Origin: Blastocatellia bacterium
GTDB taxonomy: Bacteria > Acidobacteriota > Blastocatellia > UBA7656
DNA length: 64,000 nucleotides
Direction of reading: 5' to 3'
Assembly: GCA_035575515.1 (NCBI GenBank)
Contig: DATLXU010000067.1
Span: forward strand, 6,519 to 70,518
Of this stretch, positions 1 through 57,986 are shown piece after piece; positions within the stretch are counted from its first letter, which is position 1, and every line of letters begins with the position of its first letter. The position numbers were made by a program, and so were the translations under genes. The notes beneath the pieces were generated by a model. The model was not told the DNA's origin. It worked only from the letters and a program-made list of their open reading frames with translations, and searched no databases.

Positions 1-1241
1 GGCCAGCTCCTTTGATTTCCCATCGTGATGATCGTGGCCAATCGCGCGGGGCTTCCATAAACCGAGCCGCGATCAAATATCCTCAAGCCGATTCCCTGAA
101 TATTGTTTCGCACGTTGAAGGAATGCGCTACGCCAAGCCCGTTGTCATAATCGAAATCGGCCCAGATGTAAGCGAAGTCAAATGCGTCATCGTGCGCGCT
201 GTAGAAGGCTCGCATCAGCGCGGGCACATCCAACAGCTTCTCTTTCGAAAACGCCTCGAAGAACGGGCCGGAGATTGTCTGTTCCGTCGGCTCGGATAAA
301 TCAACCGGCTGCGCGTCCGCGTCGGAATTGCCGGGCGAAATGCCAGCCACCGCGCTATGCGCTTTGATTTTTTTATAAACGAAGGCGATTCGCCCGTCGT
401 CGTATAGCACCGCTTGAAAAGTGTTCTTGCCACCGTAAACCGCATCAGGCACTTTGTCCCACGTGACGATGTGGCGATCGCTCAAGCGCGTGTAGTAAAT
501 ATTCCCTGCTTCACTGACGCTCAGGTCTGTCCACAGCGGCGCGATTCGCGGCAACCCCGTAGCAAGAGCCGCAGGCGAAGCGCGCCCGTTCGTGTCGCCC
601 CGACCGAATGTTATATAGCCGTTCGTGCCGATGTAGAGCGTGTCGTATTGCGCGCCGTAAAATGGGAAGAGCGGGCCGCGAACCGCTATGTCAATATCGT
701 GGTAGCCATTGTCGTAGTTGCCCAACTCGCCGTCAGCCCCGAAGAAAAATCCGAGCCTGAACCCGTAATTTCTGTTGAACGCGATGTCAGCAGGAGCGAC
801 GCGAAAGCCATTGCCATCGGGTGTAAAGATCACCGCGTTGTTGTTCAAATCGAACTTCGATGGCGGAAGGATAATCGTGCCGTCGTCTTCGATAATGGAC
901 GTGCCGCCGATGTCTTCTACCTTTGGCGCGCTCAGGCTCGCGGTAGTCATTAAAGCAGCAACGCGCTTATTCAATCGAAGCGCGTTGAGCCTGTGTTTGC
1001 TCAATTCATCTTCGGCGCCGCGCGGGTCGTAGCCGCAATCGAACTGGCCACCGGGCAACCGCGCGGCGCGCTTCTCAGTCTTCAATTTATCGCGACGGGC
1101 CGCGTCAGCCGAAATTCGACCGAGCGAAGGCGCGAGCGCAAACGCCGCGAGCGCGAGGGCAAGCCCCGCGCGGCGGTTGAACAACCGCCGCGCGCAAGCA
1201 AGAAATCTCGCAGGGTCAATTCCATTAAAGAGTTTATTCAT
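1..1241 (-). CDS. secreted hypothetical protein, N-terminal part (3' end runs off window start); twin-arginine-like signal (RRLFNRR + Ala/Leu h-region)
   Basis: Manual translation of the reverse strand gives an open frame from ATG at 1241 (alternative ATG 1280) to position 1 with no stop, MNKLFNGIDPARFLACARRLFNRRAGLALALAAFALAPSLG.... It is not in the ORF track because the stop lies outside the window. The plus-strand ORFs 12..1322 change frame repeatedly and look antisense. Confidence 0.5.
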   Translation of the reverse strand, partial: MNKLFNGIDPARFLACARRLFNRRAGLALALAAFALAPSLGRISADAARRDKLKTEKRAARLPGGQFDCGYDPRGAEDELSKHRLNALRLNKRVAALMTTASLSAPKVEDIGGTSIIEDDGTIILPPSKFDLNNNAVIFTPDGNGFRVAPADIAFNRNYGFRLGFFFGADGELGNYDNGYHDIDIAVRGPLFPFYGAQYDTLYIGTNGYITFGRGDTNGRASPAALATGLPRIAPLWTDLSVSEAGNIYYTRLSDRHIVTWDKVPDAVYGGKNTFQAVLYDDGRIAFVYKKIKAHSAVAGISPGNSDADAQPVDLSEPTEQTISGPFFEAFSKEKLLDVPALMRAFYSAHDDAFDFAYIWADFDYDNGLGVAHSFNVRNNIQGIGLRIFDRGSVYGSPARLATIITMGNQRSW

Positions 1242-1687: not shown

Positions 1688-2887
1688 TTGGGAGTAGAAG
1701 AAGTGGAAGGAAAAGAACAAGCACAAAGTAGTCGAGTACCCCTCAATCCAGATTTGAAAAGTCCACGCGCCCAGGAGTTCGAGTCGAAACTCGCTTCTCT
1801 GATTGTCGGGCAGGAGCGCGCCGTGCGCCGCATATCGGGGCTTTATCAAATATATCTTGCAGGCATGCAGAATCCTGGAAGGCCGATTGGAACGATGCTG
1901 TTTTTAGGCCCTACCGGGTCGGGCAAAACGCGCGTCGTCGAGGCAGCCGCCGAAGTGCTCTTCAATGACGCGAATGCCGTCGTTAAGGTTGACTGCGCGG
2001 AGTTCCAGCATTCGCATGAGATCGCTAAACTGATCGGCTCGCCTCCCGGTTATCTGGGCCATCGTGAGACAGCGCCGATGCTCACGCAGGAAAACCTCGA
2101 CAAGTATCATACCGAGCAGGACAAGCTCACCTTTGTCCTGTTCGACGAAATAGAAAAAGCGTCGGACGCGCTCTGGCAATTATTGCTCGGCATATTGGAT
2201 AAGGCGACGCTCACGCTTGGCGACAACCGCAAAGTCGACTTCTCGCGCTGCATGATTTTTCTCACATCGAATCTCGGCGCGAAAGAGATGAGCGAACTGA
2301 TAACAGGCTCGATAGGCTTTGCGCCCGCGCGGGCCAAAGGGATGATTGAAGACGACGTCGACCAGAAGATTTATCGCACTGCGTCGGAAGCTGCGAAGCG
2401 GAAGTTTTCGCCCGAGTTCATGAACCGCATTGATAAGGTCGTCGTCTTCCGCAGCCTGAAGGAGCATCACCTGCGTCAGATACTCGAGCTTGAGCTTGGG
2501 CAGGTGCAGTCGCGCATCATGAAAGGCACAGGCGAGAAGTTCGTCTTCACCTGCACGGATGAAGCGAAGAAGTTTCTGCTCGATGAAGGGATTGATTTCA
2601 AATACGGCGCGCGACACTTGAAGCGAGCGATTGAAAGATTCCTCGTCTATCCGATCTCCAACCTCGTTGCCACAGGTCAGGTGGCGACGGGCGATCTTGT
2701 TGTTATTGATTATGACGGGGCGACTGGCAAGCTGGTCTTCACGAAAGAAGAAGGCGGTGCGCTGATTGACCCGTACCGCGAAAAGCATCCTGAGATGTTC
2801 GCTGGTCCTGAAGAAGGGCAAGCGGCGGAAGCAGCAGCGTCCAACACGGGACTTGTGACGGCCCCGCTGAAAGCGATTGAGAAGTAG
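1688..2887 (+). CDS. single-module Clp/Hsp100-type AAA+ ATPase (ClpA/ClpB D2-like domain plus C-terminal D2-small domain), with an IGF loop
   Basis: Walker A LFLGPTGSGKT and Walker B FVLFDEIEKA. Strong resemblance to ClpB D2 (VGQERAV, IGSPPGYLGH, sensor and D2-small domains). GSIGFAPARAKG resembles the ClpX ClpP-docking loop. TTG start. Confidence 0.8.
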   Translation: MGVEEVEGKEQAQSSRVPLNPDLKSPRAQEFESKLASLIVGQERAVRRISGLYQIYLAGMQNPGRPIGTMLFLGPTGSGKTRVVEAAAEVLFNDANAVVKVDCAEFQHSHEIAKLIGSPPGYLGHRETAPMLTQENLDKYHTEQDKLTFVLFDEIEKASDALWQLLLGILDKATLTLGDNRKVDFSRCMIFLTSNLGAKEMSELITGSIGFAPARAKGMIEDDVDQKIYRTASEAAKRKFSPEFMNRIDKVVVFRSLKEHHLRQILELELGQVQSRIMKGTGEKFVFTCTDEAKKFLLDEGIDFKYGARHLKRAIERFLVYPISNLVATGQVATGDLVVIDYDGATGKLVFTKEEGGALIDPYREKHPEMFAGPEEGQAAEAAASNTGLVTAPLKAIEK

Positions 2888-5121: not shown

Positions 5122-5712
5122 ATGAACGACTTTGGAGAAATGGCCGGGCCTTACATGAGAAAGTTAGCATTAATAATCGCGCTGCTCCCGCTGCTGATTC
5201 CGGGACTCGCACAATCGCGCAATAATTGCTTGCGCGTCATGCCTGTTAATGAACTGACGCGCAACGCTATCCTCATCGCGCGCGTGAAAGTGTTTCGCAC
5301 AGAAAAAGCTAGATACAAGGGGCTGTTCAATCAATTGGCGACATTGCGTCCCGTTGATGTTATCGAAGGCGACTTCACGCTTACAGAGATTAACGTGCTG
5401 GCGCGCTCGAACGAACGCTGCGCCGAAGATAATTACATCAAAGACCAGGAGATGCTTGTTTTCCTTGAGCCTGAGGACAGCTTATTCCACACTGTGAATT
5501 TTCAATATGGTCAATTCCTCATCGTCGGCGACATCGTGAAAGGCTGGCGCGACAAAGCGAACAATGCAGTTGATAAGCCTTATGCGGAGGTGCGGCAGGA
5601 AATTACGGATTACGTCAAAGCCGCGCGCACTCCTAAGACCGAAGGCGAGCCGAAGCCGCCCGCGCCACAAAAGCCGCCTGCTCAGCCAGTCAAGCCGCCC
5701 GCGATTCCATAG
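5122..5712 (+). CDS. hypothetical secreted protein with Pro/Lys-rich C-terminal tail
   Basis: Signal peptide MRKLALIIALLPLLIPGLAQS (alternative start 5155). C-terminus EGEPKPPAPQKPPAQPVKPPAIP. Confidence 0.5.
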   Translation: MNDFGEMAGPYMRKLALIIALLPLLIPGLAQSRNNCLRVMPVNELTRNAILIARVKVFRTEKARYKGLFNQLATLRPVDVIEGDFTLTEINVLARSNERCAEDNYIKDQEMLVFLEPEDSLFHTVNFQYGQFLIVGDIVKGWRDKANNAVDKPYAEVRQEITDYVKAARTPKTEGEPKPPAPQKPPAQPVKPPAIP

Positions 5713-6998: not shown

Positions 6999-8159
6999 TC
7001 ACAAGATGAGCATCGCGTCGCCATAGCTGTAGAAACGATATTCATGCTCGACCGCGTGGCGGTATGCTTTCAGAATCAAATCCCGCCCGGCGAATGCTGA
7101 CACCAGCATCAAAAGCGACGAGCGCGGCAGGTGAAAATTGGTTATCAATCCGCTCAGCACCTGAAACTTGAAACCGGGATAAATAAAGAGGTCTGTCGTG
7201 CCTGCGCCGGGGGGCAGGGGTCGGTTGTCAGGATCAGATTCGGATAGCGCGTGGCTGGTACGGGAAGGAGATGAACTTGTTGATGTGATCTCCCGGTCCC
7301 CTGTCCCCTGCTCCCTGCTCCCTGCTCCCTGCCGACAGGCTGATTCAAGCGCGCGGGTTGTCGTCGTGCCGACGGCGATAACTCGTCGCCCTTCACCGAG
7401 CGCGCGATTGATTGAGCGCGCGGCCTCTTTGCCGATCGTGTACCTTTCAGGCTCGACGTGATGCTGTTCGACTTGCTCGACCCGAACAGGCTGAAACGTT
7501 CCGTAGCCGACGTGCAGAGTTATCTCAGCTATTTCGATCCCTTGCGCTCGCACGCGCTCAAGCAACTCAGGCGTGAAGTGCAATCCGGCGGTCGGGGCGG
7601 CGACGGCTCCGCGCTCGCGGGCGTAAACCGTTTGATAGCGCTCGGCGTCGAGCCGGTCCTCTTCGTCGCGCTTGATGTAGGGAGGAAGCGGCGTGCGGCC
7701 TATGCGGTCAATTATCTCGTCAAAGTCGCCTTCGCTTTCAAAGCGAACGATGCGGCGACCCATCTCGCGCCACTCGATTACTTCAGCCGTGAGCTTGCCG
7801 CGCGCGAACTCGATGCGCGCTCCCGGCAGCAATGATTTGCCGGGTCGCACCAGAGCTTCCCAAACTAAAGGCTCGATGCGCTGCACCAGAAAAACTTCGA
7901 CGCGCCCGCCTAAGACAGTCTCGCCTCGCGGAGTTTTTCTGAGCCTCCTGCCTATAAGCCGCGCGGGAAAGACTCGCGTGTTGTTGACGACGAGCAAATC
8001 GCCCGCTCTGAGATAATCGGGCAATTGTTCAAAGATTGAATCCGTCAGCGCGCCGCTTTTGCGATCAACAACGAGCAAGCGCGAGCGGTCGCGCCGCGCC
8101 GACGGTTCTTGCGCGATTAATCTTTCAGGAAGCTCGTAGTCGAAATCAGAGACCAGCAT
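6999..8159 (-). CDS. queA: S-adenosylmethionine:tRNA ribosyltransferase-isomerase QueA, with a lineage-specific low-complexity insertion
   Basis: The N-terminus MLVSDFDYELPERLIAQ and C-terminus IYPGFKFQ...TNFHLP are classical QueA. The longest ORF starts at 8210. Confidence 0.85.
   Translation of the reverse strand: MLVSDFDYELPERLIAQEPSARRDRSRLLVVDRKSGALTDSIFEQLPDYLRAGDLLVVNNTRVFPARLIGRRLRKTPRGETVLGGRVEVFLVQRIEPLVWEALVRPGKSLLPGARIEFARGKLTAEVIEWREMGRRIVRFESEGDFDEIIDRIGRTPLPPYIKRDEEDRLDAERYQTVYARERGAVAAPTAGLHFTPELLERVRAQGIEIAEITLHVGYGTFQPVRVEQVEQHHVEPERYTIGKEAARSINRALGEGRRVIAVGTTTTRALESACRQGAGSREQGTGDREITSTSSSPSRTSHALSESDPDNRPLPPGAGTTDLFIYPGFKFQVLSGLITNFHLPRSSLLMLVSAFAGRDLILKAYRHAVEHEYRFYSYGDAMLIL
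7291..7332. repeat. six tandem heptamers (TCCCGGT CCCCTGT CCCCTGC TCCCTGC x3) inside the queA coding sequence
   Basis: Seen directly. 42 nt is 14 codons, so it is frame-preserving. It encodes GAGSREQGTGDRE in QueA. The unit matches the CCCTGAC arms of the intergenic palindromic elements. Confidence 0.7.
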
Positions 8160-9246: not shown

Positions 9247-9365
9247 GGAAGTCAGGGGCCAGATAGAAGGCGCAAGGCAACAGGCAGCCGCTTTAGCATG
9301 TTTTTTGCTCTCTGCCGTTTGCTGCTTTCCGCCTTCTATCTTCTTCTCACTGACCCCTGACTCCT
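9247..9365. repeat. heptamer-built imperfect palindrome (arms AGTCAGGGGCCAGATAGAAGGCG / CGCCTTCTATCTTCTTCTCACTGACCCCTGACTCC)
   Basis: Seen directly in the divergent region between yihY and the FAD oxidoreductase gene. Confidence 0.55.
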
Positions 9366-9387: not shown

Positions 9388-10515
9388 ATGGAAACGTTCG
9401 ACTGCGTGATAACTGGCGCGGGGATTATGGGCGCGGCTGCGGCCTGTGAAGCCGCGCGCGAGGGCGCACGTGTCGCGCTAATGGATCAGACCGCGATTCC
9501 TAACCCGCGAGCCGCGTCCGTAGATCATTCAAAAGTATTTCGTTTCGCGTATCCAGACTCGCTCTACGTTCGGCTGGCAATTGACGCGCTCGCGCGATGG
9601 CGCGCGCTTGAACAGGAAACGGGTGCGCGACTGTTGACTGAAACTGGATTGTTGATGATAGGCCAGACTTCGTCAGCGTTTGAAATTCAATCTTTTGAAA
9701 CGCTGCGCTCGCTTGGCTGCGAAGCCGAGATGCTTGATGGTCGCGAAGCGACGCGGCGATTCCCTCAGTTCAACGCCGATGCTTTTCCTTTTGCGGTTTA
9801 TGATCCAAGCGGCGCGATTCTTCAGGCAGAGCAAGCCCTGCGCGCTCTTGTTAAGCTTGCTCGTAATCGCGGCGTGACCGTTATCGAAAATCAGCGAGCA
9901 GTTGAAATCAAACAGAGAGAGAGCAAGCGCGTGTTGATTGTGAGCGACGGCGGCAAGAAGCTTAAGTGCAAGCGGGCGATGATCGCTTCAGGTCCGTGGA
10001 CGCGAAAGCTGCTCCCCGTTCTGGATGATAAACTCACGACTACGCTTCAGGAGATTGTTTATTTCGAGCCGCACGATTCGCAAATGAATTTCGAGCCGGG
10101 CGCGTTTCCGATCTTCATCGAGCTTACGAGCGGGTTTTATGGCTTCCCTGTTCATCACGCGAGGGCGATGAAGATAGCCAATCATCACAAAGGCCCGCCA
10201 ATTGATCCATATTCATTTGACGAGCAGGTTAGTGATGATTTTATTCAAAGGTGCCGCGCGTTCTTTTCCGAGTTCATTCCGCATCTCGCCGAGGCAACGG
10301 TGAAAGAGACTCGCGTGTGCATATACAATAACACGAGGGATGACGACTTTATCATTGACTGGCACACGGAGATTGAAAACGCGCTCATCGTGACGGGCTT
10401 TTCAGGTCACGGCTTCAAGTTCGCAACGACCATTGGCCGCATCGGCGCAGAGCTATTGCTTTCAGGCCGGACCGAATTCGACATCGAGCGATTCAGCCTC
10501 GCGCGATTCCGTTAA
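9388..10515 (+). CDS. FAD-dependent oxidoreductase (DAO family; monomeric sarcosine oxidase / N-methyltryptophan oxidase-like)
   Basis: N-terminal dinucleotide-binding motif VITGAGIMGAAAA, size and C-terminal GHGFKF motif. Confidence 0.7.
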   Translation: METFDCVITGAGIMGAAAACEAAREGARVALMDQTAIPNPRAASVDHSKVFRFAYPDSLYVRLAIDALARWRALEQETGARLLTETGLLMIGQTSSAFEIQSFETLRSLGCEAEMLDGREATRRFPQFNADAFPFAVYDPSGAILQAEQALRALVKLARNRGVTVIENQRAVEIKQRESKRVLIVSDGGKKLKCKRAMIASGPWTRKLLPVLDDKLTTTLQEIVYFEPHDSQMNFEPGAFPIFIELTSGFYGFPVHHARAMKIANHHKGPPIDPYSFDEQVSDDFIQRCRAFFSEFIPHLAEATVKETRVCIYNNTRDDDFIIDWHTEIENALIVTGFSGHGFKFATTIGRIGAELLLSGRTEFDIERFSLARFR

Positions 10516-10532: not shown

Positions 10533-11279
10533 ATGAAAATTCTTTCGGGGGGCGCGGCAGTAATCGCAGGCGGCGCGTTCACACAAACGGAAGGCGCGCG
10601 CCGCTATCGCACGCCTGTCTCTCGCGCGATGGGAGCGCGCGACATCGTTCAAACCATCAGCCTGTACTCGCGCGGCTTTGCGGCGGCGCGCAGAAATCGG
10701 ACGAGCGAGGAAGTGCTTTACGTCACGCGCGGCGAAGGCGTTTGTCATATTGACGGGCACGCTTACGCGCTCGCGCCGGGCATGGCCGCATTCATTCCTA
10801 CAGCGAGCGTTTACAGAATAGAAAACACTGGCGAAAGCGATCTTGAAATCGTGAGCGTCTGCTGCCCTGAAGATGAGCAAGCGGAAATCGTAGAGGCTGA
10901 AATGAGAGGCGAGCCGAATGAAACAAAACCGATTCGCACGGTTCACGAAGCAGATCAAAAGCCGATTCCAACGGGCGACCGCACATTCAAGCTGTTAATC
11001 AGTCACGAACAGGGCGCAAGCCGCGTCACTCAATTCATCGGCGTCATTCCGCCGGGCCGCGCATCCATGCATCATCACACTTACGAAGAAGCGATTTACA
11101 TTATCGAAGGCAGAGGCCGCGTCTGGACTGATGGCGGAAGCGCGGAGTTTGAAGCGGGCGCGAGCATTTACCTTCCGCGCGGCGTGAGCCATTCGCTTGA
11201 AAACACCGGCGCGACTGACATCCGATTGCTCGGCGTCTTTCACCCATCGGGCAGCCCCGCCGCGCGGTATGACGATTGA
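10533..11279 (+). CDS. bicupin domain protein
   Basis: Two cupin-like repeats (GEGVCHIDGHAYALAPGMAAFIP and HHHTYEEAIYIIEGRGRVWTDG). Confidence 0.55.
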   Translation: MKILSGGAAVIAGGAFTQTEGARRYRTPVSRAMGARDIVQTISLYSRGFAAARRNRTSEEVLYVTRGEGVCHIDGHAYALAPGMAAFIPTASVYRIENTGESDLEIVSVCCPEDEQAEIVEAEMRGEPNETKPIRTVHEADQKPIPTGDRTFKLLISHEQGASRVTQFIGVIPPGRASMHHHTYEEAIYIIEGRGRVWTDGGSAEFEAGASIYLPRGVSHSLENTGATDIRLLGVFHPSGSPAARYDD

Positions 11280-13720: not shown

Positions 13721-13811
13721 GTGAATCGTAAATCGTAAATCGCGAATTGCAGTTGAGGGCAGGCGATTGCCGTTGTTTACAGCTTATTGCGATTCCCGAT
13801 TTATGATTTAC
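13721..13811. repeat. heptamer-built palindrome (GTGAATC GTAAATC GTAAATC GCGAATT ... GCGATTC CCGATTT ATGATTT AC)
   Basis: Seen directly between the lnt stop and the prfB start. Confidence 0.55.
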
Positions 13812-15631
13812 CGCTCATGCTCTCTTTTCGGCAGTATCGAAACAATCACAAGCGTGATGCTTAACACCGCGCACGCGACGGCAAACACGTCGCCGTAGCG
13901 CGTGTAAAAAGTCAAAGAGTCGCCTCGCGCTTCGTCAACCGTCTTTATATTCCACAGCCGCGTCGTCTGCTCGAACATCGGCGTTTCATCGCGCACGATG
14001 CCGTAGCGGTCTATGCGCGCCGACAGCCCTGAATTTGTCGAGCGTATCAACTCAACATTGTTTTCAACCGCGCGAAACACCGCGCACGCGAGCATCTGTC
14101 GCGGAGCCGCGCCCGGGCCGAACCACAGTTCGTTTGAAATCTGCACGAGCGCAGTCGCTCCTTCGAGGCGAAGCCTGCGCACGATGTCAGGTCTCGTGGC
14201 TTCAAAACAGATTGCTGTTCCCAGTCGCGCTCCCGCGACATCGCCAAGCGTGAAGCTCGCGCCCGGAGTGATGTCGGCTACGAGCGCAGGTATTTTGTCC
14301 ATGAAAGGAAGCCAACTGCGCGCGGGAACGTACTCTCCGAAAGGAACCAAAGCAATCTTATCATACTCAAAAATCTTCCGGCCATCGGGCGCAATCGCGA
14401 GCGCGCTGTTGTATCGCGCATCAATCGTGTCGTCTTTGGGGAAGCCCCAACTGTTCATCAACAGAAAAACATTATTGCTGCTTGTGAATTCTGAGATTGT
14501 GCGTTGCAACTCGAAATCGCGGTCGTATTCAAAATTCATCGGCGATTCGGGCCAGATGACCACATCAACTCCCGCGCGGCGAAGCTGGCCGCCTGTCGCA
14601 TTGGAATCGCTTATTGAACGCGCGCCGGCTTCTCCCGAAGCAGCCTGTTTGGCTTTGTCTTGAATAGCTCGATTCGACAGCGCGATGAAATCTTCCACTG
14701 TTACAGGCCCGACTTCTATCGGCACGTCCGGTTGAATGATTGCTACCGTGACAGACCCCGCTTCTTCCTTCTCCGGCCTGAGCGATTCGCCGTAGATGAC
14801 CGTCAGTATCGCTATCACGCCTGCAGCCGTCAGCACTATAATGCCGCGCCGCCGCTCAAGGTAGATGAGTGCGAAGACAAGCGCCGTGCTTGCCGCAACC
14901 ATGATTGCGCTGACAAGGTAAACGCCGCCCAGTCGCGCCACTTGAATCACCGCCGGTTGAAACGCTTGAGAGTAGCCGAGCGCGTTCCATCCCACGCCCG
15001 TGATTTCCAATCGCGCCCATTCGCTTGCAGCCCAAAGCACCGGCGCTGAAAGAATCGCCCATCCTCGAAATCGCTTTATCGCAAGAGCCAACGCTCCGGC
15101 AAACAATCCCGTGAAGATGCTGAGCGCCGATGCGAACACAGTCGTGATTACATAAGAAAGCCACAACGGTATCTCGCCATAGTTGTGCATCGAATGCGTG
15201 ACCCAGTAGGATGAGCCTACATAAAAGATTGTGCCCGCGACGTAGCCCAACAGCAGCGAGCGCCAGAATCTCTGCTCGCGCACGACGGCCATAATCAGCG
15301 GAGCGGTGCATACCCAGCCTAATGACCACCAGTTCCATTCCGGAAACGCAAAGACGAGCAGCAGCCCTGAAAAGATCGCCAGCAGCAGGTTGCTTATGAA
15401 TGGCGGCGAGGCGCTCTGGTAGGGAATGACTTTCGACACGCGAAAGCGGGCGGCCAGCAAATCCTCGTGCGCGTAAACGGGCGGCGCGGCTTCTTCTTGA
15501 TGCTGAACACAGCAGTGTGAATGATGAACAAAGGAGGAAAAACCCTGAAAGGTAAACGCAGGCCGGATTATGTTGAGCAAAGCATTACGCACAGAATCAT
15601 TTTTATCACATCTTGATTCATCATTCATCAT
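13808..15631 (-). CDS. lnt: apolipoprotein N-acyltransferase
   Basis: N-terminal polytopic membrane domain plus C-terminal nitrilase-type CN-hydrolase domain (VVIWPES, ICFE). The first ~64 residues of the longest ORF are non-membrane. A GTG at 15439 gives a typical 544-aa Lnt. Confidence 0.8.
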   Translation of the reverse strand: MMNDESRCDKNDSVRNALLNIIRPAFTFQGFSSFVHHSHCCVQHQEEAAPPVYAHEDLLAARFRVSKVIPYQSASPPFISNLLLAIFSGLLLVFAFPEWNWWSLGWVCTAPLIMAVVREQRFWRSLLLGYVAGTIFYVGSSYWVTHSMHNYGEIPLWLSYVITTVFASALSIFTGLFAGALALAIKRFRGWAILSAPVLWAASEWARLEITGVGWNALGYSQAFQPAVIQVARLGGVYLVSAIMVAASTALVFALIYLERRRGIIVLTAAGVIAILTVIYGESLRPEKEEAGSVTVAIIQPDVPIEVGPVTVEDFIALSNRAIQDKAKQAASGEAGARSISDSNATGGQLRRAGVDVVIWPESPMNFEYDRDFELQRTISEFTSSNNVFLLMNSWGFPKDDTIDARYNSALAIAPDGRKIFEYDKIALVPFGEYVPARSWLPFMDKIPALVADITPGASFTLGDVAGARLGTAICFEATRPDIVRRLRLEGATALVQISNELWFGPGAAPRQMLACAVFRAVENNVELIRSTNSGLSARIDRYGIVRDETPMFEQTTRLWNIKTVDEARGDSLTFYTRYGDVFAVACAVLSITLVIVSILPKREHER

Positions 15632-16537: not shown

Positions 16538-16680
16538 CTTGTCAGGGGTTAGGGGTCAGGGGTCGGTGATCGGTTGAGAGATTGGCCGTTGCCTTGAAAA
16601 TGGCTCTGGGAGCCTGTTTCAAGGATAACTATTATTCTTTCAACTGACCACCGATTACTGGCCGCTGACCACTAATTCTG
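16538..16680. repeat. heptamer-built imperfect palindrome (GTCAGGG GTTAGGG GTCAGGG GTCGGTG ... TGACCAC CGATTAC TGGCCGC TGACCAC)
   Basis: Seen directly between the SPOR-gene stop and the lipA start. Confidence 0.55.
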
Positions 16681-23244: not shown

Positions 23245-23706
23245 ATGTTTAACGGCGTTGTTCGTAATCGAGGCGAGTTGGCGAAAGCGGAATCAACGCT
23301 CCAGGAGCTTGAAGAAAAATATGAGCGCGTTCGCTCGCTCCTCGAAGAGCGCAAGGCTGAGCGATTGCAGATAGAGACGCAAGTGCAGGCGGCGGCAGCG
23401 GCAGCAGGCGATATGGACAGGCTCGTGGCACTGCAATCTCGCGCCGTTGCTCTTGACCGCTCGATTGCGGAATTGAGCGCGGCGGAAGCCGAATGCTGCG
23501 AACGTGTGCAATCTGCGCGGCGTTACCTTTACACCCTTTACGTGCGGCTCGAAAAGCTCAGGCAGGAGGCTGTGCTCTTGAAGCGCAAGCTCTGGTTGAA
23601 CGAGGAGGCCGAAGCTCTTTCAGGCGAAGAGCGAGCGAGCCTTAGCCGACTCAAGATACAGATCAAAGCAATCACCGGCGAGAGCCAGACGGGACAACTG
23701 ATTTAG
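23245..23706 (+). CDS. hypothetical coiled-coil protein
   Basis: An uninterrupted ORF with a heptad-rich sequence. No known family. Confidence 0.4.
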   Translation: MFNGVVRNRGELAKAESTLQELEEKYERVRSLLEERKAERLQIETQVQAAAAAAGDMDRLVALQSRAVALDRSIAELSAAEAECCERVQSARRYLYTLYVRLEKLRQEAVLLKRKLWLNEEAEALSGEERASLSRLKIQIKAITGESQTGQLI

Positions 23707-23790
23707 GCAGTTGCCAGTTGTCAGTGCTCAGTTGTCAGTATCCAATGCACATTTCAACTCACAACCGAGCACTGGCAACCGACAACTGCT
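23706..23790. repeat. heptamer-built palindrome / bidirectional terminator (GCAGTTG CCAGTTG TCAGTGC TCAGTTG ... GAGCACT GGCAACC GACAACT)
   Basis: Seen directly between convergent genes. Confidence 0.55.
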
Positions 23791-24453
23791 TTATTCAAAC
23801 TGGCTCTTGAAATCTAGAAACTGTTGGCGAAGCTCGGCCAGTTCCGCGCGTAGAGTTTCGATCGCGCTTTCAAGCTTGGCAATCCGCTCGTTTTCGGCGC
23901 GCACTTCGATCATCGCAGGCTCAAGTCGCGGCTCTACGGCGCGCTCTTCAATCTGCGGCTCGCCTGAAAGCAGGTGCGCGTAACGCGATTCCTTCGTGCC
24001 TGGAAGTCGCGGCAGCTTCGCTACAAGCGGCGGCTCTGCTGCCGCAAGCGAGGCCAGCACTGCTTCTACTTCTTCGATGCTTGTGAATTCGTAAAGCCGA
24101 GTGGTGCGCCCTCGAATCTCGCCTGCCGTCTGCGGCCCGCGCAACATCAACACGCACATCACCGCCACCTCTTGTTCAGCCAGCTTGAATTGCTCAGCAA
24201 AGCGATGCTCGTATTTCGGCACGCGGCTGCCCGGCCCCGTGACCATCCATATGAGACCCCTTTCACGAAGACTATCGAGCGCGCGGGCTATGATCTTTTC
24301 GTCGAAGGAAACCACAGGCTCGCGGTTCGTCGTCTGATTGCACGCATTGACGAGCGCATTGAGAGTGAGCGGGTAGTATTCGGGCGTGGTTATCTGCTTT
24401 TCGATGAGTGAACCGATGACGCGAACTTCCACAGGGTTGAGCGTGACGTTCAC
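23791..24453 (-). CDS. yceH: YceH (DUF480/UPF0502) family protein
   Basis: The N-terminus LNPVEVRVIGSLIEKQITTPEYYPLTLNALVNACNQTTNREPV is almost a consensus YceH sequence. Confidence 0.8.
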   Translation of the reverse strand: MNVTLNPVEVRVIGSLIEKQITTPEYYPLTLNALVNACNQTTNREPVVSFDEKIIARALDSLRERGLIWMVTGPGSRVPKYEHRFAEQFKLAEQEVAVMCVLMLRGPQTAGEIRGRTTRLYEFTSIEEVEAVLASLAAAEPPLVAKLPRLPGTKESRYAHLLSGEPQIEERAVEPRLEPAMIEVRAENERIAKLESAIETLRAELAELRQQFLDFKSQFE

Positions 24454-26952: not shown

Positions 26953-28056
26953 TTGCGCACGGCATATTCGAGTCACGCAATGGCAGACGAAACTAAAGAT
27001 AAATCAACGAGCGAGACGGAGAACAAATCGCGCGATGTTGAGCAAACGGAATCAGCTCAACCAAACAAATCATCTAGCGATGCGGATAAAGCTCAAGAAA
27101 TCGCATCTCGCGCCGATTCAAATGAAACAATAGGGGCCGATGTGCCTGAAAAAGCGAAGCCGCTTCCGCCCGAAGCCGGTTCGGTTTCGCCCGCCGATGA
27201 GATTGAGTCGAAAGCCAAAGTCTCGCTGCCTCCTGAAGAAAAGCTCAAGACCGAAGCGAAGGACGAAGCCGCGCTGCCCGGCGTTGAAAAGCCTTCGCTG
27301 ACTCCGACAGTCGAGGGCGCGTCGGAAAAGGGCGAGCCTGCGGCCCCTGAGAAAGTTGAGCCAAGTGCGCCCGAAGCGGGCGCGCCAGCGCCGAAACCAA
27401 CGCCGCCGCGAGCGCCCGCTGCCGGAAAGCCCGCTCCCCCGAAAGCGGCTCCCGCTGCCGGTCACAAGCCAGCCGCCCCGCCGCGCAAAGGGCCGGAGAT
27501 TACGACCGAAATCACAGGCGACCCGTTTATTGATAGAATCAAGCAGCGCTTCGGTGACGCTATCACGGAAGCAGTCGCGACGCTCGGCCAGCAGATTCTT
27601 CGCGTGAAGAAAGACGCTTACCTTGAGCTTTGCCGCTACTTGCGCGATGACGAAGAGTTCCCTTTCGATATGTGCACGGACCTGACGGCGATTCACTGGC
27701 CCGAGCGCGCGGGACAGGAGTTCGATGTTGTCTTGTTGCTTTATTCAGTGGCGAAGAATCGTCGCCTGCGCGTCAAGGTCGGGCTTGCAGACGGCGATGC
27801 GTGTCCGAGCGTCACTTCAATATGGGAAGGCGCGAACTGGATGGAGCGCGAAGTCTTCGACATGTTCGGCGTTAAATTCGACGGCCATCCTGACCTGCGG
27901 CGGATACTGCTGCCGGAGGACTGGCCCGGCCATCCGCTTCGCAAAGAGTATCCGATTGAGTATCGCGACAACGAATGGACAGACAAGCACCTTGAGTACC
28001 GCGAGATTGATTACGACACGAGCTTGATTGATGTGAAGTACGCGGAACGGAGATAG
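26953..28056 (+). CDS. nuoC: NADH-quinone oxidoreductase subunit C with ~170-aa Pro/Ala/Glu/Lys-rich N-terminal extension
   Basis: The C-terminal 190 aa are canonical NuoC (ELCRYLRDDEEFPFDMCTDLTAIHWP...EREVFDMFGVKFDGHPDLRRILLPEDW). The N-terminus is low complexity. Confidence 0.85.
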   Translation: MRTAYSSHAMADETKDKSTSETENKSRDVEQTESAQPNKSSSDADKAQEIASRADSNETIGADVPEKAKPLPPEAGSVSPADEIESKAKVSLPPEEKLKTEAKDEAALPGVEKPSLTPTVEGASEKGEPAAPEKVEPSAPEAGAPAPKPTPPRAPAAGKPAPPKAAPAAGHKPAAPPRKGPEITTEITGDPFIDRIKQRFGDAITEAVATLGQQILRVKKDAYLELCRYLRDDEEFPFDMCTDLTAIHWPERAGQEFDVVLLLYSVAKNRRLRVKVGLADGDACPSVTSIWEGANWMEREVFDMFGVKFDGHPDLRRILLPEDWPGHPLRKEYPIEYRDNEWTDKHLEYREIDYDTSLIDVKYAERR

Positions 28057-28057
28057 T

Positions 28058-28146
28058 GGTCAGAAGTCAGAGGTCAGGGAACAGGGATAGAAAGCAGAAG
28101 AATCTGTTTTACCCTGACCCCTGACCCCCTGACCCCCGACCCCTGT
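28058..28146. repeat. heptamer-built palindrome (GGTCAGA AGTCAGA GGTCAGG GAACAGG ... CCCTGAC CCCTGAC CCCCTGA CCCCCGA CCCCTGT)
   Basis: Seen directly in the nuoC-nuoD spacer. Confidence 0.6.
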
Positions 28147-29287
28147 GAGGAATATGCAAGAGCAGGGATTGACGAAGCCGCAAGAAACCCTCTTCGATGC
28201 CGAAGAGATGATTCTCAACATGGGTCCGCAGCATCCTTCTACTCACGGAGTGCTGCGCGTTATCCTCAAGCTCGACGGCGAAACCGTCCGTGACCTCGAC
28301 TGCGACATCGGTTATCTCCATCGCGGCGTTGAGAAGATCGCTGAAAACGACACCTATGCAATGATAACGCCTTACTGGGACCGACTAGATTACGTCGCCG
28401 CAGTCTCGAACGATCTCTGCTACGTCGAAGCCGTCGAAAAACTCCTTCAGGTCGAAGTTCCCAAGCGAGCCGAATACCTGCGCGTCATCCTCACAGAGCT
28501 TCAGCGCATTGCGTCGCACCTGCTCTGGTTGGGCACGCACGCGATGGACATAGGCGCGGTCACGGTTCTGCTTTATTGCTTCCGCGAGCGCGAAGAGATT
28601 CTGAAAATCTTCGAGGACTTCATAGGTGCGCGGCTCACGGCTCATGCGTTCCGTATCGGAGGACTCTGGTGGGACGCTTACCCTGAGTTTGAAACTCGCG
28701 TGCGCGAATTCTTGAAGATACTTCCGGGCCGCATAGAGGAGTACGAAACGCTTCTGAACGCGAACCGCATCTGGCTGCAACGCACGGTCGGCATCGGCAT
28801 CATCACCGCAGAAGACGCAATCAACATGAGCCTTACGGGACCGTGCCTGCGCGGGTCGGGCGTGAAGTATGACGTGCGCAAAGCGACGCCTTATTCGGCT
28901 TATTCCGATTTTAATTTCGAGATACCGATAGGCGAAAACGGCGACACGTATGACCGCTACCTTGTGCGCATGGAAGAGATTAAACAGTCGGCAATCATAA
29001 TCGAGCAGGCGCTGGACGGATTGCCGGAAGGGCCTGTGATGGCGAAGGTGCCGAAGATAATCAAGCCGCCCGTAGGCGAAGTCTATCATTCGATAGAAGG
29101 GCCGAAGGGCGAGCTTGGCGCTTATCTTGTGAGCGACGGCACGGGCAAGCCTTATCGAATGCGCATCCGTCCGCCGTCATACATCAACCTGCAATCGCTC
29201 AAGAAGATGTCTGTCGGCCATCTCGTTGCAGACGTTGTCGCAATCATCGGCACGATTGACATCGTGCTGGGCGAAGTTGATAGATAG
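28145..29287 (+). CDS. nuoD: NADH-quinone oxidoreductase subunit D
   Basis: [17 protein letters not shown]...LHRGVEK and the C-terminal NuoD signature. Confidence 0.9.
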
Positions 29288-30715: not shown

Positions 30716-31261
30716 ATGCCAGCAGTAACAACGCCAGCAAAGAAGCGAACCATCGGGCAGATAATCAGGCGACTCTTGTTGCTCGATCTGTTCAAAGGTC
30801 TCGCCGTAACGTTCAAGTATAACGCTCGCGCATTTGTTGAGCCGCGCGACGGCGGTAATCCCAATCAGGCGATTTACACCGAGCAGTACCCGCTTGAGCC
30901 TGCGCGAGTCTCGGAAAGATTTCGCGGCGCGCCGCGACTCAATCTCGACCCTGAAACGGGCGGCACGCTCTGCATCGCGTGCGACCTGTGCGCGCTGGCC
31001 TGCCCGGTTGATTGCATCGAAGTCGGCTCGATCCGCCGCGAAGTGCGCGACGGCGACAAGGTGAACAAGAAGAAAGTGCTGACGACTTTCACCTTCGACA
31101 CATCGCGCTGCATGTTCTGCAATCTCTGCTCGGAGGCGTGTCCGACAGATTGCCTTGAGCTTACTCAGAGTTTTGAATTAGCGGTCTATCACCGCTCAGG
31201 TTTTCGCTGGGATCGCGAGATGCTCGAAAAGGGCATCAATTACGTTCGCTATACACGCTAG
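30716..31261 (+). CDS. nuoI: NADH-quinone oxidoreductase subunit I (2x[4Fe-4S] ferredoxin)
   Basis: CIACDLCALACP and CMFCNLCSEACP motifs. Confidence 0.9.
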   Translation: MPAVTTPAKKRTIGQIIRRLLLLDLFKGLAVTFKYNARAFVEPRDGGNPNQAIYTEQYPLEPARVSERFRGAPRLNLDPETGGTLCIACDLCALACPVDCIEVGSIRREVRDGDKVNKKKVLTTFTFDTSRCMFCNLCSEACPTDCLELTQSFELAVYHRSGFRWDREMLEKGINYVRYTR

Positions 31262-31378
31262 GAGCTAGGGGCCAGGGGGCTAGGGGCTGGGAGTCAGTGG
31301 ATTTGAGATTTGAGATTTCAAATTTGAAATTCATCCGACCCTGACCCCCGGCCCCCAACCCCTGACCCCGTGCCGGAG
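31262..31378. repeat. heptamer-built palindrome (GCTAGGG GCCAGGG GGCTAGG GGCTGGG AGTCAGT ... CCTGACC CCCGGCC CCCAACC CCTGACC CC)
   Basis: Seen directly in the nuoI-nuoJ spacer. The loop contains GATTTGA GATTTGA GATTTCA heptamers. Confidence 0.6.
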
Positions 31379-31382
31379 GCAC

Positions 31383-31979
31383 ATGCAACTACACGGGTGG
31401 GAAGCAATCCTGTTTTACGCGCTAGCCATCATGACTTTGTTCATGGCGGTCTTCGTCGTGACGGCGCGCGTTGCGGTTCACTCGGCGCTCTTTTTGATCT
31501 CGACGCTTGTCAACGTCGCGCTGCTGTTCATATTGCTGCGCGCCGAGTTCGTTGCGGGCGTTCAGATACTCGTTTACGTCGGCGGCGTGATGGTGCTGTT
31601 TTTATTTGTCATCATGCTCGTTCAGACTCGCGCCGAAGAGGAAGCGCGCGTGCGGCTCTACACGGGTCAGACGTGGCCTGCGGTGATAATCGCGCTGCTG
31701 CTTGCCGTCGCGTTTTATTTTGCGATGAACCCTGCGCAATCGGCTTTTCGCCCGGCTGAAGTCGCAGCAGCAACCGCCACTCAAGCGCCGCCTGAAACGG
31801 GCGAGCGCGTTCAAGCGGGCGCGGGCCAGAACATCTCCAGAGACACGCAGACCGTCGGCCACGCGCTCTACACCGACGCGGCTCTGCCTTTTGAAGTCGC
31901 GTCCTTGCTGCTGCTCGTTGCAATGATAGGCGCGGTGCTGTTGGCGCGCGGAACGAAGCAAGAGAAATATTATGAGTAA
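31383..31979 (+). CDS. nuoJ: NADH-quinone oxidoreductase subunit J
   Basis: TM pattern and the [20 protein letters not shown] motif. Confidence 0.85.
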
Positions 31980-31996: not shown

Positions 31997-32440
31997 GTGA
32001 ATAGCTTACTGATGGGCGCATTAGCCTACGCCGCTCCGCTGCTCTTGCAGGCCCAGCAGCAACAATCGGCCCTGAAACGATTCGAGCCTACGCTCATCAA
32101 CTTTTTGATGTTGAGCTTTCTGCTTTTCGTCGTCGGCGTAGCGGGCGTGCTGTCGCGACGCAACATCATCATCATCTTCATGTCAATCGAGCTGATACTG
32201 AACGCGGTCAATCTGAACCTGATTGCGTTCTCGCGCTACTTGCAACTCAACGAGCAGTCGCTCAACGCTCAGTTTCAAGCTTCAGGCGTCACGGTGAACC
32301 CGCTGGCCGGGCCTGTCTTTACTGTCTTCATAATCGTCGTCGCAGCAGCAGAAGCAGCCGTAGGTCTTGGCATCGTCATAGCAATGTTCCGCAATCGCGA
32401 AACGGTCGCGATTGACGAGATTGATATGTTGAAGTGGTAA
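31997..32440 (+). CDS. nuoK: NADH-quinone oxidoreductase subunit K (extended)
   Basis: The [22 protein letters not shown] motif is NuoK. Extra N-terminal and internal segments make it 147 aa against ~100 aa. Confidence 0.8.
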
Positions 32441-32528
32441 TCATTTGTCATTGGTCATTTGTCCCTTGTCCTTTGTTTATTCTTTAAGGACAAGCGAGCA
32501 AATGACCAATGACAAGTGACCAATGACA
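32441..32528. repeat. heptamer-built palindrome (TCATTTG TCATTGG TCATTTG TCCCTTG TCCTTTG ... ACAAGCG AGCAAAT GACCAAT GACAAGT GACCAAT GACAAAT)
   Basis: Seen directly in the nuoK-nuoL spacer. The right arm overlaps the annotated nuoL ATG at 32516. Confidence 0.6.
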
Positions 32529-49310: not shown

Positions 49311-50579
49311 CTATTCATGCCTGAGCGCGGCAATCGGGTCCAATCGAGCGGCTTTCACCGCAGGCCACAAGCCGAAAACTATTCCCACCATCACCGAGCC
49401 GAAGAAGCCGAACGCCGCCGCCCACAGCGGTATCACCATGTAAAGCGCAGGGATGAGCGAAGACACAACCGTCGCAAGCAGCCAGCCGAACAATAGTCCC
49501 GCAATTCCGCCAACTCCTGTGAGTGTTACGGCTTCGGTTAAAAACTGCCAGATTATATCTGATCGCCGCGCGCCTACGGCTTTGCGTATGCCTATCTCGC
49601 GCGTGCGCTCCGTGACGGCCACAAGCATTATATTCATCACGCCGACGCCGCCGACCATAAAGGCAATCGAAGAGATTATCAGCATCACGCCGAAGACCGC
49701 GCCCACTATGTCGTCGAACGTCGAGATGAACGATTCCGGCGTGCCTACCTCGAAATCGTTATCTTCGTTCAACGGCACACCGCGACGGCGGCGCAGCACC
49801 TGCTCAATCTTTTCGATGCCTTCTTTCATTCGCCCTTCGCGCATCCGCACGATGATGAAGTGGTCGTCTACAGTCGGGAACATCTTGCGAAACGTATAGT
49901 AGGGAATGAATATATCGTTGTCTTCTTGATTTTCGGAGCCGAACGGCCCGGCCTTCTGTTTCTTGACGGTGCCGACAACTTTGAAATCCTGCCCGCCGAG
50001 ATTTATCGTCTTGCCAATCGGGTCTTCAGCCGGAAAGAGCGCGTCGACTACATTGTACGCAAGCACGCATACATTGGCGCGATGCTCATTTTCAGCGTCG
50101 TTGAAGTAACGCCCTTCAGCTACGGGAACATTCATCACAAGCTCGGCGACGGGGAAATTGCCGACCACGCGCGGGCGGCCCATCACGCGGTCGCGATAGC
50201 GGGCTTCTGGCGGAACGGGCGGCACTTCGCCCGGCAAAGGTATCCCGTAAATCAAACCCGCATAGACGTGCTCGACTGCGGCGACTTCCTGCTCAATCGC
50301 CTGCGCGTCTTCGAGCGTGAGCGGCTTGCGATTTAAGACCTTAGCGGGCGGGCGGCTCGTCATTATGAACGGGTAGCGCCAGAAATAGACGTTGCGCGTG
50401 CCGAAGCTCTCGGCCTGATCGAGTATTGATTGGCGAAAGCCATTCAGCACCGCAGCCATCGCCACGATGACGAGCACGCCGATGAACACACCGACAATCG
50501 TGAGCGCGGCGCGGAACTTGTGCGCCGCGAGCGTCTGCATCGCCAGTTGAGTGTTCTCTTTTACGCTCGACCAGTTCAT
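49311..50579 (-). CDS. ABC transporter permease, FtsX/MacB type (4 TM plus large periplasmic domain)
   Basis: MacB_PCD-like N-terminal part and the C-terminal FtsX motif VTERTREIGIRKAVGA. Confidence 0.85.
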   Translation of the reverse strand: MNWSSVKENTQLAMQTLAAHKFRAALTIVGVFIGVLVIVAMAAVLNGFRQSILDQAESFGTRNVYFWRYPFIMTSRPPAKVLNRKPLTLEDAQAIEQEVAAVEHVYAGLIYGIPLPGEVPPVPPEARYRDRVMGRPRVVGNFPVAELVMNVPVAEGRYFNDAENEHRANVCVLAYNVVDALFPAEDPIGKTINLGGQDFKVVGTVKKQKAGPFGSENQEDNDIFIPYYTFRKMFPTVDDHFIIVRMREGRMKEGIEKIEQVLRRRRGVPLNEDNDFEVGTPESFISTFDDIVGAVFGVMLIISSIAFMVGGVGVMNIMLVAVTERTREIGIRKAVGARRSDIIWQFLTEAVTLTGVGGIAGLLFGWLLATVVSSLIPALYMVIPLWAAAFGFFGSVMVGIVFGLWPAVKAARLDPIAALRHE

Positions 50580-50586
50580 GAAAATT

Positions 50587-50697
50587 AGCAGGCAGCAGGC
50601 AGCAGGCAGCAGGCAGTTAAGGGGTTATAGTGGATGCTATATTTTTTCAAAAGGTTCATAGCTATTGAAGTTCTGTTCCTCACTGCCTACTGCCTAT
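50587..50697. repeat. heptamer-built palindrome ((CAGCAGG)x4 ... CCTCACTGCCTACTGCCT)
   Basis: Seen directly between the two FtsX genes. Confidence 0.5.
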
Positions 50698-51983: not shown

Positions 51984-52039
51984 ACCGCCGCTCTATTCAA
52001 GTTATAGCTGCTGCCTGTGACGGGGTCAATCATTATCAT

Positions 52040-52146
52040 CTTGGATTTTAGATTTTGGATTTACGACTGTCTGAAGCCGTTTCCCGAAGTCGTCCGGGGC
52101 TTGTGCTCTGTTAATCCAAAATCCGAAATCTAAAATCCAAAATCGA
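52040..52146. repeat. heptamer-built palindrome (CTTGGAT TTTAGAT TTTGGAT TT ... AATCCAA AATCCGA AATCTAA AATCCAA AATCG)
   Basis: Seen directly upstream of the FtsX pair. Same family as 21995-22081. Confidence 0.55.
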
Positions 52147-53971: not shown

Positions 53972-54481
53972 ATGCCAACAGAAGAGACGAAAGATAATTC
54001 CAGCGGCGGCCTCGTGCTTGCGCCGGGCGAAGGCAAAAAGATTACAGTTGGACCGAACACAGTTACTTATAAGCTGCGCGGCGAACACACGGGCGGCGCG
54101 TTTTCTATGATTGAGTATTCAGTCGCAGGCAAATTTGAAGCGCCTTCCGCCTTGCACTATCATACGAAAGACGCGGCGGCCATCTACGTGCTCGAAGGCA
54201 CGTTCGGCTTTCAACTTGGCGAATGCGAGGTGCTCGCACCGGCAGGCTCGGTCGTGCTGCTTTCGAGCGGGTTGCCATTCAAATGGTGGAACGCGGAAGA
54301 CAGGCCCGCGAGATATCTAGCGATTTATTTTCCGGCAGGCTTTGAAAAGTATTTTGAAGAGGTGAACGAAGCGGCAAACAGCTTGCCGCCCGGCCCGCTC
54401 GATATGGAGAAGCTGGCGCCGCTGATTAAACCAATCTGGGAAAAGTATGGCATCGCCATATATAAACCCGAAGACAAATAA
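53972..54481 (+). CDS. cupin domain protein
   Basis: Single cupin barrel; conserved His positions HYH. Confidence 0.5.
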   Translation: MPTEETKDNSSGGLVLAPGEGKKITVGPNTVTYKLRGEHTGGAFSMIEYSVAGKFEAPSALHYHTKDAAAIYVLEGTFGFQLGECEVLAPAGSVVLLSSGLPFKWWNAEDRPARYLAIYFPAGFEKYFEEVNEAANSLPPGPLDMEKLAPLIKPIWEKYGIAIYKPEDK

Positions 54482-54503
54482 GATTAAGCTTGAGGTGAAA
54501 TTG

Positions 54504-57978: not shown

Positions 57979-57986
57979 GAAGATTG

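Follow-up and report, generated by a model that had tools for sequence, protein, structure and literature searches.

A tandem-heptamer array in queA of a Blastocatellia bacterium and the hairpin cassettes found at the same loop in its relatives

The queA gene and its heptamer array

A 64,000-nucleotide stretch of a Blastocatellia bacterium genome (hereafter "the window") carries, inside queA, an array of six tandem heptamers, and the nature of this array is the subject of the present analysis. By family profile and by comparison with solved structures, the gene is a full-length queA, specifying tRNA preQ1(34) S-adenosylmethionine ribosyltransferase-isomerase. Its product covers profile positions 1-322 of 322 in Pfam PF02547 (E 1e-133) and matches PDB entries 1yy3, 1vky and 1wdi, the 1yy3 match (E 5e-101) falling into two blocks on either side of the insert. 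The identical protein is found as NCBI HXG92460.1 and on contigs L001 and L002 of the Blastocatellia metagenome-assembled genomes GCA_037024475.1 and GCA_037024435.1. The gene, its variable loop and the parts of the loop are as follows.

6999-8159, minus strand: queA coding sequence, 386 aa, ATG start, protein beginning MLVSDFDY (open reading frame and translation)
7191-7340, minus strand: QueA variable loop, 50 codons (ACRQ...GTTD) between GTTTTRALES and LFIYPG, of which about 35 codons are cassette
7291-7332, minus strand: G-rich 5' arm of six heptamers (GCAGGGA three times, GCAGGGG, ACAGGGG, ACCGGGA), encoding QGAGSREQGTGDRE
7305-7329, minus (sense) strand: predicted canonical G-quadruplex motif (G3+N4 x4) within the array, from a regular-expression scan
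7236-7290, minus strand: non-repetitive cassette spacer with a small internal stem GGAGAT...ATCTCC (sequence and fold)
7200-7235, minus strand: decayed C-rich 3' arm, sense strand ...GATCCTGACAACCGACCCCTGCCCCCCGGCGCAGGC, encoding DPDNRPLPPGAG

Read on the plus strand, the array consists of tcccggt, cccctgt, cccctgc and three copies of tccctgc. It makes up codons 276-290 of queA, (R)QGAGSREQGTGDRE, with QGAGSREQGTGDRE itself at residues 277-290, and so sits 72-75% along the gene. Tandem Repeats Finder reports 3.9 copies at 100% for 7306-7332 and 3.3 copies at 88% for 7292-7315, a degenerate continuation; only about four units are perfect, and both outer units depart from GCAGGGA at 2/7 positions. 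Judged from 100 dinucleotide-shuffled versions of the window, a 20-nt pattern of three units (three mismatches at most) is expected 0.01 times. Sequence and chance expectation together bear out the first-pass annotation of this DNA, which had described six in-frame heptamers (42 nt) in queA. It had also assigned the unit to the CCCTGAC type of the intergenic palindromes. The unit does have the CCCTGNN frame common to the palindrome arms, repeats of this kind occurring in intergenic palindrome arms at 16545, 28070, 28112, 28127 and 31339, but it is not identical to CCCTGAC. Four of the five G-quadruplex motifs that the regular-expression scan found in the window lie inside heptamer arrays.

Is the array a lone arm without a partner, as was first supposed? 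A complementary arm is found at 7200-7235, and relatives show two arms clearly (see below). The best piece of this decayed arm (7205-7220, CGCCGGGGGGCAGGGG) is 80-91% complementary to array units. The inverted-repeat pairs are 7205-7219/7320-7334 (80% complementary) and 7210-7220/7305-7315 (91%), which make the outer stem of the minimum-free-energy fold; the 150-nt loop region as a whole forms a single long imperfect hairpin of -62.1 kcal/mol (z -2.77 and -2.88 as RNA, -1.75 as DNA). The array is thus, as far as sequence can tell, the better-preserved arm of a decayed two-arm hairpin cassette. The spacer at 7236-7290 has no second copy in the window or in the other loci, save on the same-strain contigs L001 and L002; for the queA cassette itself only 16-nt chance matches were found in the window and all fetched loci. 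No Rfam family matched, whether the whole window was searched at the gathering threshold or 7000-7600 at E up to 1. An assembly artefact was ruled out: the window cassette is repeated in L001 and L002, and the cassette of a relative (L090) is repeated in an independent Logan assembly (L091).

The cassette lies between a helix ending ...TRALES and the strand TDLFIYPG. Aligned to a relative in which the site is empty (L087), the window QueA has a net insertion of about 35 codons. The counterpart of the loop in B. subtilis QueA (1yy3) is a gap between residues 273 and 277, with about three unaligned residues. Among the 120 closest QueA homologues (70-78% identity) the same loop is 15-100 aa long; in other bacteria its modal length is 16 aa (36 of 53 queA loci), and it is expanded in unrelated lineages too. 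Judged from its placement in the alignment to solved QueA structures, the loop is insertion-tolerant. These lengths alter two earlier statements. QueA had been credited with about 27 extra residues besides those of the array; the extra residues are real, but the 14 array residues belong to the total of about 35 and do not come on top of it. Exactly six units had also been thought necessary to keep the frame, but the array is only part of a 35-codon insert, and a relative with five units (L094) is likewise in frame.

It had further been suggested that the insertion be modelled on a QueA structure to see whether it sits in a surface loop. The 1yy3 alignment does put the insert in a loop, but an AlphaFold model made with 40 close homologues is too weak to judge surface exposure; in this weak model residues 278-309 have predicted local distance difference test (pLDDT) values below 50 and no secondary structure. 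As to the solved chains, Foldseek gives 280-315 residues for 1vky, 1yy3 and 1wdi against sequences of 345-347, and large parts of QueA appear to be unmodelled in these crystal structures.

Cassettes at the same loop in relatives

Cassette DNA was read for ten homologues, and about 250 kb of clade DNA was examined in all. A scan of genome contigs gave four close relatives (L003-L006), the remaining loci having distant QueA proteins with basal loops. A metagenome scan with a degenerate flank pattern (ACRQ clade) gave two loci, L093 and L094, neither of them from this species. The loop peptides of homologues look like translated complementary repeat arms, for instance GLGAGGQGLG...PLTPNPQPLTPNPQ and GAEEQRSGGAEEQRSG...SAPLLRSSAPLLCSS, and the cassettes read in relatives are in-frame hairpins whose arms consist of 7- or 8-nt tandem units, often near-perfect. 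That of L083 is 300 nt long and folds at -192 kcal/mol (z -7.4); the z values of L086, L089 and L088 are -7.6, -6.0 and -4.6, and other cassettes are weaker, up to about 0. The two arms usually have unequal unit numbers (14 and 8 in L083, 3.7 and 9.6 in L085), in keeping with arms that slip independently of each other.

The units found at the queA loop are of at least five types: GGGGTCA-type, GGAGCAGA, GGCCAGT, GGGGCCN, and CAGGGAG/CAGGTGA, the last being that of the window and L094. In some relatives the site is empty, with loops of 15-22 aa (L087, whose 15-aa loop is ACRRGPLVPGAATTD, L006 and L004), and others have one arm only (P0014, P0063 and P0104). L094, with a QueA backbone only 69% identical to that of the window, has five units of the window's type in a short loop with a short, perfectly complementary C-arm, encoding VTGDREQGTGDK. 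The first-pass annotation would have been contradicted by conservation of the peptide across distant QueA proteins with non-repetitive DNA. The outcome is mixed: L094 keeps REQGTGD, yet its DNA is also repetitive.

The cassettes turn over between close strains. Unrelated cassettes occur in two pairs of QueA proteins (P0062 and P0078, P0025 and P0041) with 98-99.4% identity in the backbone outside the loop, and other close backbones have loops 8 or 16 aa apart, corresponding to 3 or 6 octamer units; the two main cassette types are mixed over the backbone tree. The clearest case is a pair of contigs of one species, L090 and L092, with 97.4-99.0% identity across 21 kb. Only two places interrupt their alignment, the queA cassette and one intergenic hairpin site, all other insertions and deletions being of 4 nt or less, and the density of single-nucleotide differences stays at the background of about 1% up to some 35 nt from the cassette. 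At queA one contig has a heptamer GGGGTCA-type hairpin and the other an octamer GGAGCAGA-type hairpin, both in frame; the L092 loop reads AATGGAGAAGTGACGGTTCATCGCGCGGTC. At the second break (L090 2943-3102, L092 2816-3106) L090 has two tandem GGGGTCA-type hairpins with a common loop, and L092 a GTCCGTA/GTCAGTA-type hairpin with a long loop that holds a called 63-aa open reading frame. The idea that cassette types A and B are a single DNA translated in two frames was considered and dropped, since the DNAs differ (heptamer GGGGTCA-type against octamer GGAGCAGA). The type-A cassette peptide, used as a query for other host proteins, gave no match, probably because of low-complexity filtering.

L089 points to the copying of a whole element. 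Its queA cassette (10836-11000) aligns without gaps over about 130-135 nt, loop included, at about 80% identity with an intergenic hairpin 1 kb upstream (9841-10000), which lies between a BrkB-family gene and queA. Judging by this pair, whole hairpins can be transferred as copies between spacer and queA loop. Unit families also recur at several loci within one genome, namely ACGGACT in L086 and L092 and AGAGGCT in L089. An alignment of queA across relatives had been proposed as a check for unit-number variation. The site does prove hypervariable, but through in-frame unit changes and cassette replacement, which is different from on/off slippage.

Are the cassettes translated? In every cassette read there are no frame-0 stops, and the other frames often have stops. 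The C-arm of L085, whose unit is CCCCTAA, is instructive: 3/3 units in the queA frame read CAA, and 6/6 out-of-frame units read TAA or TGA. Such codon choice argues for selection on the open frame and for translation of the cassette. Bypassing has precedents in T4 gene 60 and the mitochondrial 'byp' elements, and excision of the hairpin from RNA or translational bypassing was considered as the main explanation; it was dropped because in-frame stops are specifically avoided, which argues against both RNA excision and ribosomal bypassing.

Hairpins in spacers and in other genes

Tandem heptamers are abundant elsewhere in the window. Period 7 accounts for 21 of its 43 Tandem Repeats Finder arrays, and a separate scan gave five period-7 runs against 0, 0, 1 and 0 for periods 5, 6, 8 and 9. 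A sliding fold scan found about 12 strong hairpins with arms of tandem 7-9-nt units, nearly all of them intergenic, including the following.

9251-9360: intergenic hairpin between the BrkB-family and DAO genes, ends GTCAGGGG ... CCCCTGAC
13721-13830: intergenic tandem-unit hairpin, unit AATCGTA
16541-16660: intergenic tandem-unit hairpin, unit GTCAGGG
23691-23800: intergenic tandem-unit hairpin, unit CAGTTGC
28051-28160: intergenic hairpin between nuoC and nuoD, GTCAGAA/GTCAGAG/GTCAGGG ... CCCTGAC four times, of the queA-array class
31257-31370: nested intergenic tandem-heptamer hairpin between nuoI and nuoJ, with a GCTAGGG-type arm, an inner GATTTGA palindrome and a TGACCCC-type arm
32431-32540: intergenic tandem-heptamer hairpin between nuoK and nuoL, TCATTTG x5 ... 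CAAATGA x4.7, the window's strongest (z -6.8)
50587-50696: intergenic tandem-unit hairpin, unit AGCAGGC
52031-52144: intergenic tandem-heptamer hairpin, GGATTTT x2.7 ... AATCCAA x4.6
57981-58062: intergenic tandem-unit hairpin, unit CGCCAAGAA
60761-60870: intergenic tandem-unit hairpin, unit GGCAGGGGCC

The three nuo hairpins (28056-28145, 31261-31383 and 32440-32516) nearly fill their spacers and lie inside one NADH dehydrogenase operon, not at its end. Orthologous spacers in relatives, including the one between the BrkB-family and DAO genes, have hairpins too, with unrelated sequences.

A second enzyme gene behaves like queA. In L088 an in-frame GGGGTCA/GGGGCCA hairpin (640-740, minus strand) lies in a PF04107 (GCS2) glutamate-cysteine ligase gene and encodes GVRGQGSGAREEPKPAPGPQHPTP. 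Across 120 homologues this GCS2 loop, 4-10 aa long at its shortest, reaches 20-51 aa, and its two-arm peptides are of several types; variants of 28 aa and 21 aa are three heptamers apart. The same contig has a perfect TCAGGAT array of 4.6 copies (2715-2746, plus strand), in frame within the linker of a DinB_2 + FGE-sulfatase protein resembling EgtB and encoding SGFRIQDSGFRS; no partner arm is evident for this array.

Two further observations concern hairpin architecture. In nuoL (32516-34951, plus strand) positions 34373-34407 form a perfect palindrome of 17 bp, GCCTCAGAACCGGCTCC|GGGAGCCGGTTCTGAGGC, which is in frame and encodes ASEPAPGAGSEA. It directly follows the final Pfam domain of NuoL, a protein that at 811 aa is unusually long here. 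The palindrome has no tandem units and may be another in-frame palindromic insertion. In 28 hairpins from the window, L003-L006 and L083-L092 (about nine of them queA cassettes and so not independent), the 5' arm has more G than C in 23 and less G than C in 4. This bias is not a strand artefact because an inverted repeat gives the same result on both strands.

Origin of the cassettes and comparison with known repeats

We think it probable that the array belongs to a passenger, a tandem-repeat hairpin cassette in a permissive QueA loop, whose changes come from slippage in its arms and from hairpins copying or replacing one another, and for which the only filter is maintenance of the frame and absence of stops. 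Genomes of this Blastocatellia clade carry many hairpins, mostly intergenic, with arms made of complementary arrays of 7-9-nt units, and a few of these sit in permissive loops of housekeeping enzymes. Replication slippage would lengthen and shorten the arrays. Whole cassettes would be copied or replaced, either because hairpins recombine or undergo gene conversion with one another or because strains exchange short patches, and within genes the survivors would be those versions with a total length that is a multiple of three and no in-frame stop. Translation would yield a loop rich in Gly, Arg, Glu, Ser and Pro, probably disordered and a mere passenger as far as QueA catalysis is concerned. Most of the 3' arm would have decayed in the genome studied here, so that the six heptamers are what remains visible. 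We infer slippage and conversion, from comparative patterns, as the mechanisms at work, and likewise neutrality of the cassette for the enzyme. The earlier notion of a tolerated repeat element survives in this explanation as regards the sequence (akin to palindrome arms), the insertion-tolerant region and the occurrence of frame-preserving versions only, but not as regards the lone arm.

Several points weigh against the passenger cassette. The window hairpin barely beats shuffled sequence, and because it is so weak (z -2.8 as RNA, -1.75 as DNA) the two-arm reading of the window cassette leans on the relatives. Homologues were retrieved as intact predicted proteins, an ascertainment bias, so frameshifted alleles could have been missed. 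No dispersed consensus family was found, each hairpin being unique within the 64-kb window, and copying between loci is seen in one pair only, that of L089. The AlphaFold model has a mean pLDDT of 64.5, with template-modelling (TM) scores of 0.48-0.67 and root-mean-square deviations of 8-10 Å against 1vky, 1yy3 and 1wdi. Lastly, a hairpin is kept at one site across the clade while its sequence turns over, which could mean that structure is selected.

That last point leads to the view that a hairpin, or a sense-strand G-quadruplex, is maintained to regulate queA (through ribosome pausing, RNase processing or internal termination/attenuation) or for a role at the DNA level. Orthologous intergenic spacers, too, always hold a hairpin whatever its sequence, the sense strand does have a G-quadruplex motif, and inverted heptamer repeats and G-quadruplex folding are reported for the GGGNATC repeats of Xanthomonas and Nostoc (PMC4692102). 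Yet several relatives have no cassette (loops of 15-22 aa) or a single arm, hairpin strength ranges from z -7.6 to about 0, the window hairpin is largely decayed and no Rfam family matches, so that we hold selection on a nucleic-acid structure to be unlikely. We regard as similarly unlikely the insertion of the cassette into queA by a transposase, as a transposing miniature element like MITEs (miniature transposable elements with inverted repeats), Rickettsia palindromic elements (RPEs) or repetitive extragenic palindromic (REP) sequences. In its favour, the cassette of L089 copies an intergenic hairpin close by over its full length, with the loop; the boundaries of replacement between strains are tight; unit families (ACGGACT, AGAGGCT) recur at several loci per genome; and the RPEs are a precedent for in-frame insertion (PMC10969869). 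Such an element should, however, form a dispersed family with a conserved consensus, and every window hairpin is unique; terminal inverted repeats and target-site duplications are not seen at the cassette edges, the unit numbers of the arms are unequal and variable, and the same loop is filled in nearly all relatives, which would demand an extreme target preference.

The first-pass annotation had named the site a candidate contingency (phase-variable) locus, at which gain or loss of one unit by slippage would toggle queA and so cause a heritable, reversible loss of queuosine modification. Such a switch is possible in principle because a change of one or two units would truncate QueA: the 7-nt unit is not a multiple of 3, and simulated changes of this size end the protein at residues 303-339, removing the conserved FIYPG...NFHLP...YGDAML C-terminus. 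Unit number at the queA site also differs between close relatives, and queA is dispensable in model bacteria. We nevertheless judge a contingency locus to be very unlikely, as nothing supports it directly. Perfect repetition extends over no more than 3.9 units, with degenerate units beside them, and the tract lies late in a housekeeping gene rather than close to the 5' end of a gene for surface structures or restriction-modification. Exact look-up in a collection of 15 billion proteins found 0/6 variant proteins (-3 to +3 units), and all changes seen in relatives keep the frame, being of 3 or 6 units or cassette swaps. The window, L001 and L002 are identical at the site, but this is uninformative because the three assemblies are near-clonal (99.97-99.99% identical overall). 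There is even less to recommend a loop that is functional at the amino-acid level, as a tRNA contact or a partner-binding linker, in which the repetitive DNA would be incidental. The occurrence of REQGTGD in the distant L094 and the expansion of the loop in unrelated lineages would agree with it. Against this, backbones that are 98-99.4% identical have loops of different length without sequence similarity, the peptides are mere translations of complementary repeat arms, and the loop is missing in some close relatives; we consider selection for a protein feature extremely improbable.

Beyond the passenger cassette itself, it is possible, if doubtful, that the Blastocatellia hairpins are an undescribed class of sequence-diverse tandem-repeat cassettes that are made, copied and replaced at fixed sites by a hairpin-directed mechanism. 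If this is true, the heptamer periodicity and the G-rich bias of 5' arms would both stem from such a mechanism and not from plain slippage with homologous recombination, and replacement at fixed sites (QueA, glutamate-cysteine ligase) would be fast enough to separate strains that are about 99% identical.

How do the cassettes compare with known repeats? By analogy, the closest match in mode of working is to the RPEs, which sit in frame inside unrelated protein-coding genes (PMC10969869). Both are capable of forming hairpins, have a length of about 100-150 bp (here up to 300 nt), and occur in intergenic regions and in frame in unrelated housekeeping genes (PMC10969869). In both, translation adds a peptide segment to the protein at a place that its fold can accommodate (PMC10969869), translation being suggested here by the avoidance of stops. 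The window locus has a hairpin in an intact frame (arms 7200-7235/7291-7332, z -2.8), as have the relatives (to z -7.6, all in frame), and the genes affected are several and unrelated: queA, the GCS2 loop and, with a single-arm array, the EgtB-like linker. The differences are that RPE families have a conserved consensus sequence and peptide, whereas here there are many unrelated 7-9-nt unit types without a consensus, and the 64-kb window has no dispersed multi-copy family, L089 supplying the one copy pair. The same loop is, moreover, reoccupied or replaced between strains here, the phylum is another one, and the comparison is one of build, not of sequence. The Rickettsia precedent for palindromic repeats inside proteins would extend to a free-living soil phylum.

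The G-rich heptamers of Xanthomonas and Nostoc, GGGNATC and GGGGA(C/T)T, are mostly intergenic, often in about four units, some of them tandemly inverted and able to form stem-loops (PMC4692102). As with these repeats and the short tandemly repeated repetitive (STRR) heptamers of cyanobacteria, there is here a genome-wide excess of tandem heptamers, mainly intergenic, with G-tracts predicted to be capable of G-quadruplex formation and some inverted copies (PMC4692102); the units, however, are GCAGGGA, GTCAGGG, CCCTGNN and others, outside the consensus of that family. The TAACTGA heptamers of Beggiatoaceae, cyanobacteria and Bacteroidetes are direct repeats of one conserved unit, placed immediately upstream of start codons, with a single inverted case reported (PMC4679880). 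They are similar in being a lineage-restricted excess of tandem heptamers of unexplained origin, mostly intergenic and occasionally in open reading frames (PMC4679880), but here the units are many and arranged as inverted pairs. Neither PMC4692102 nor PMC4679880 describes in-frame two-arm cassettes in enzyme loops or their swapping between strains. The REP sequences are 20-40 bp long, with a conserved GTAG or CGTC head and a per-genome consensus tied to the RAYT transposase (PMC3733652). REPs and the related REPINs resemble the present hairpins only in the abundance of GC-rich intergenic stem-loops, including some within one operon (nuo here); the window hairpins have no common consensus, their arms are arrays of tandem units, and the RAYT gene was not searched for. 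Simple sequence repeat contingency loci of Haemophilus and Neisseria (PMC12721329 gives background on such phase variation) likewise have a unit that is not a multiple of three in a reading frame, where a one-unit change would truncate the protein. The queA tract differs in being short (3.9 perfect copies), late in the gene and without length polymorphism among assemblies that are near-clonal, and queA is a tRNA-modification housekeeping gene and not one for surface structures, restriction-modification or host interaction. A full-text literature search of one library found no description of such hairpins in Acidobacteria, which is absence of evidence.

For annotation, the extra QueA residues should be taken for the translation of repeat DNA and not for a functional domain, and the array alone is no evidence of phase variation. 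Tandem heptamers occur in several bacterial lineages without an identified mechanism of origin (PMC4679880, PMC4692102). In this clade the material for answering that question is unusually clean: depending on the relative, the one loop has no arm, one or two, and its units are of five types or more; there are strain pairs that differ only at hairpin sites, and there is one copy of a neighbouring hairpin. Such contrasts should make the rates, donors and boundaries of hairpin turnover directly measurable.

Minor observations on the rest of the window concern two gene pairs and one open reading frame. Positions 49565-49655 and 50948-51038, in genes 49311-50579 and 50697-51983, are 82% identical, and positions 53383-53814 and 55632-56060, in genes 52273-53835 and 54447-56081, are 66% identical; by this similarity the members of each pair look like adjacent paralogs. 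The open reading frame at 5122-5712 (plus strand) has a proline-rich low-complexity tail, PKTEGEPKPPAPQKPPAQPVKPPAIP.

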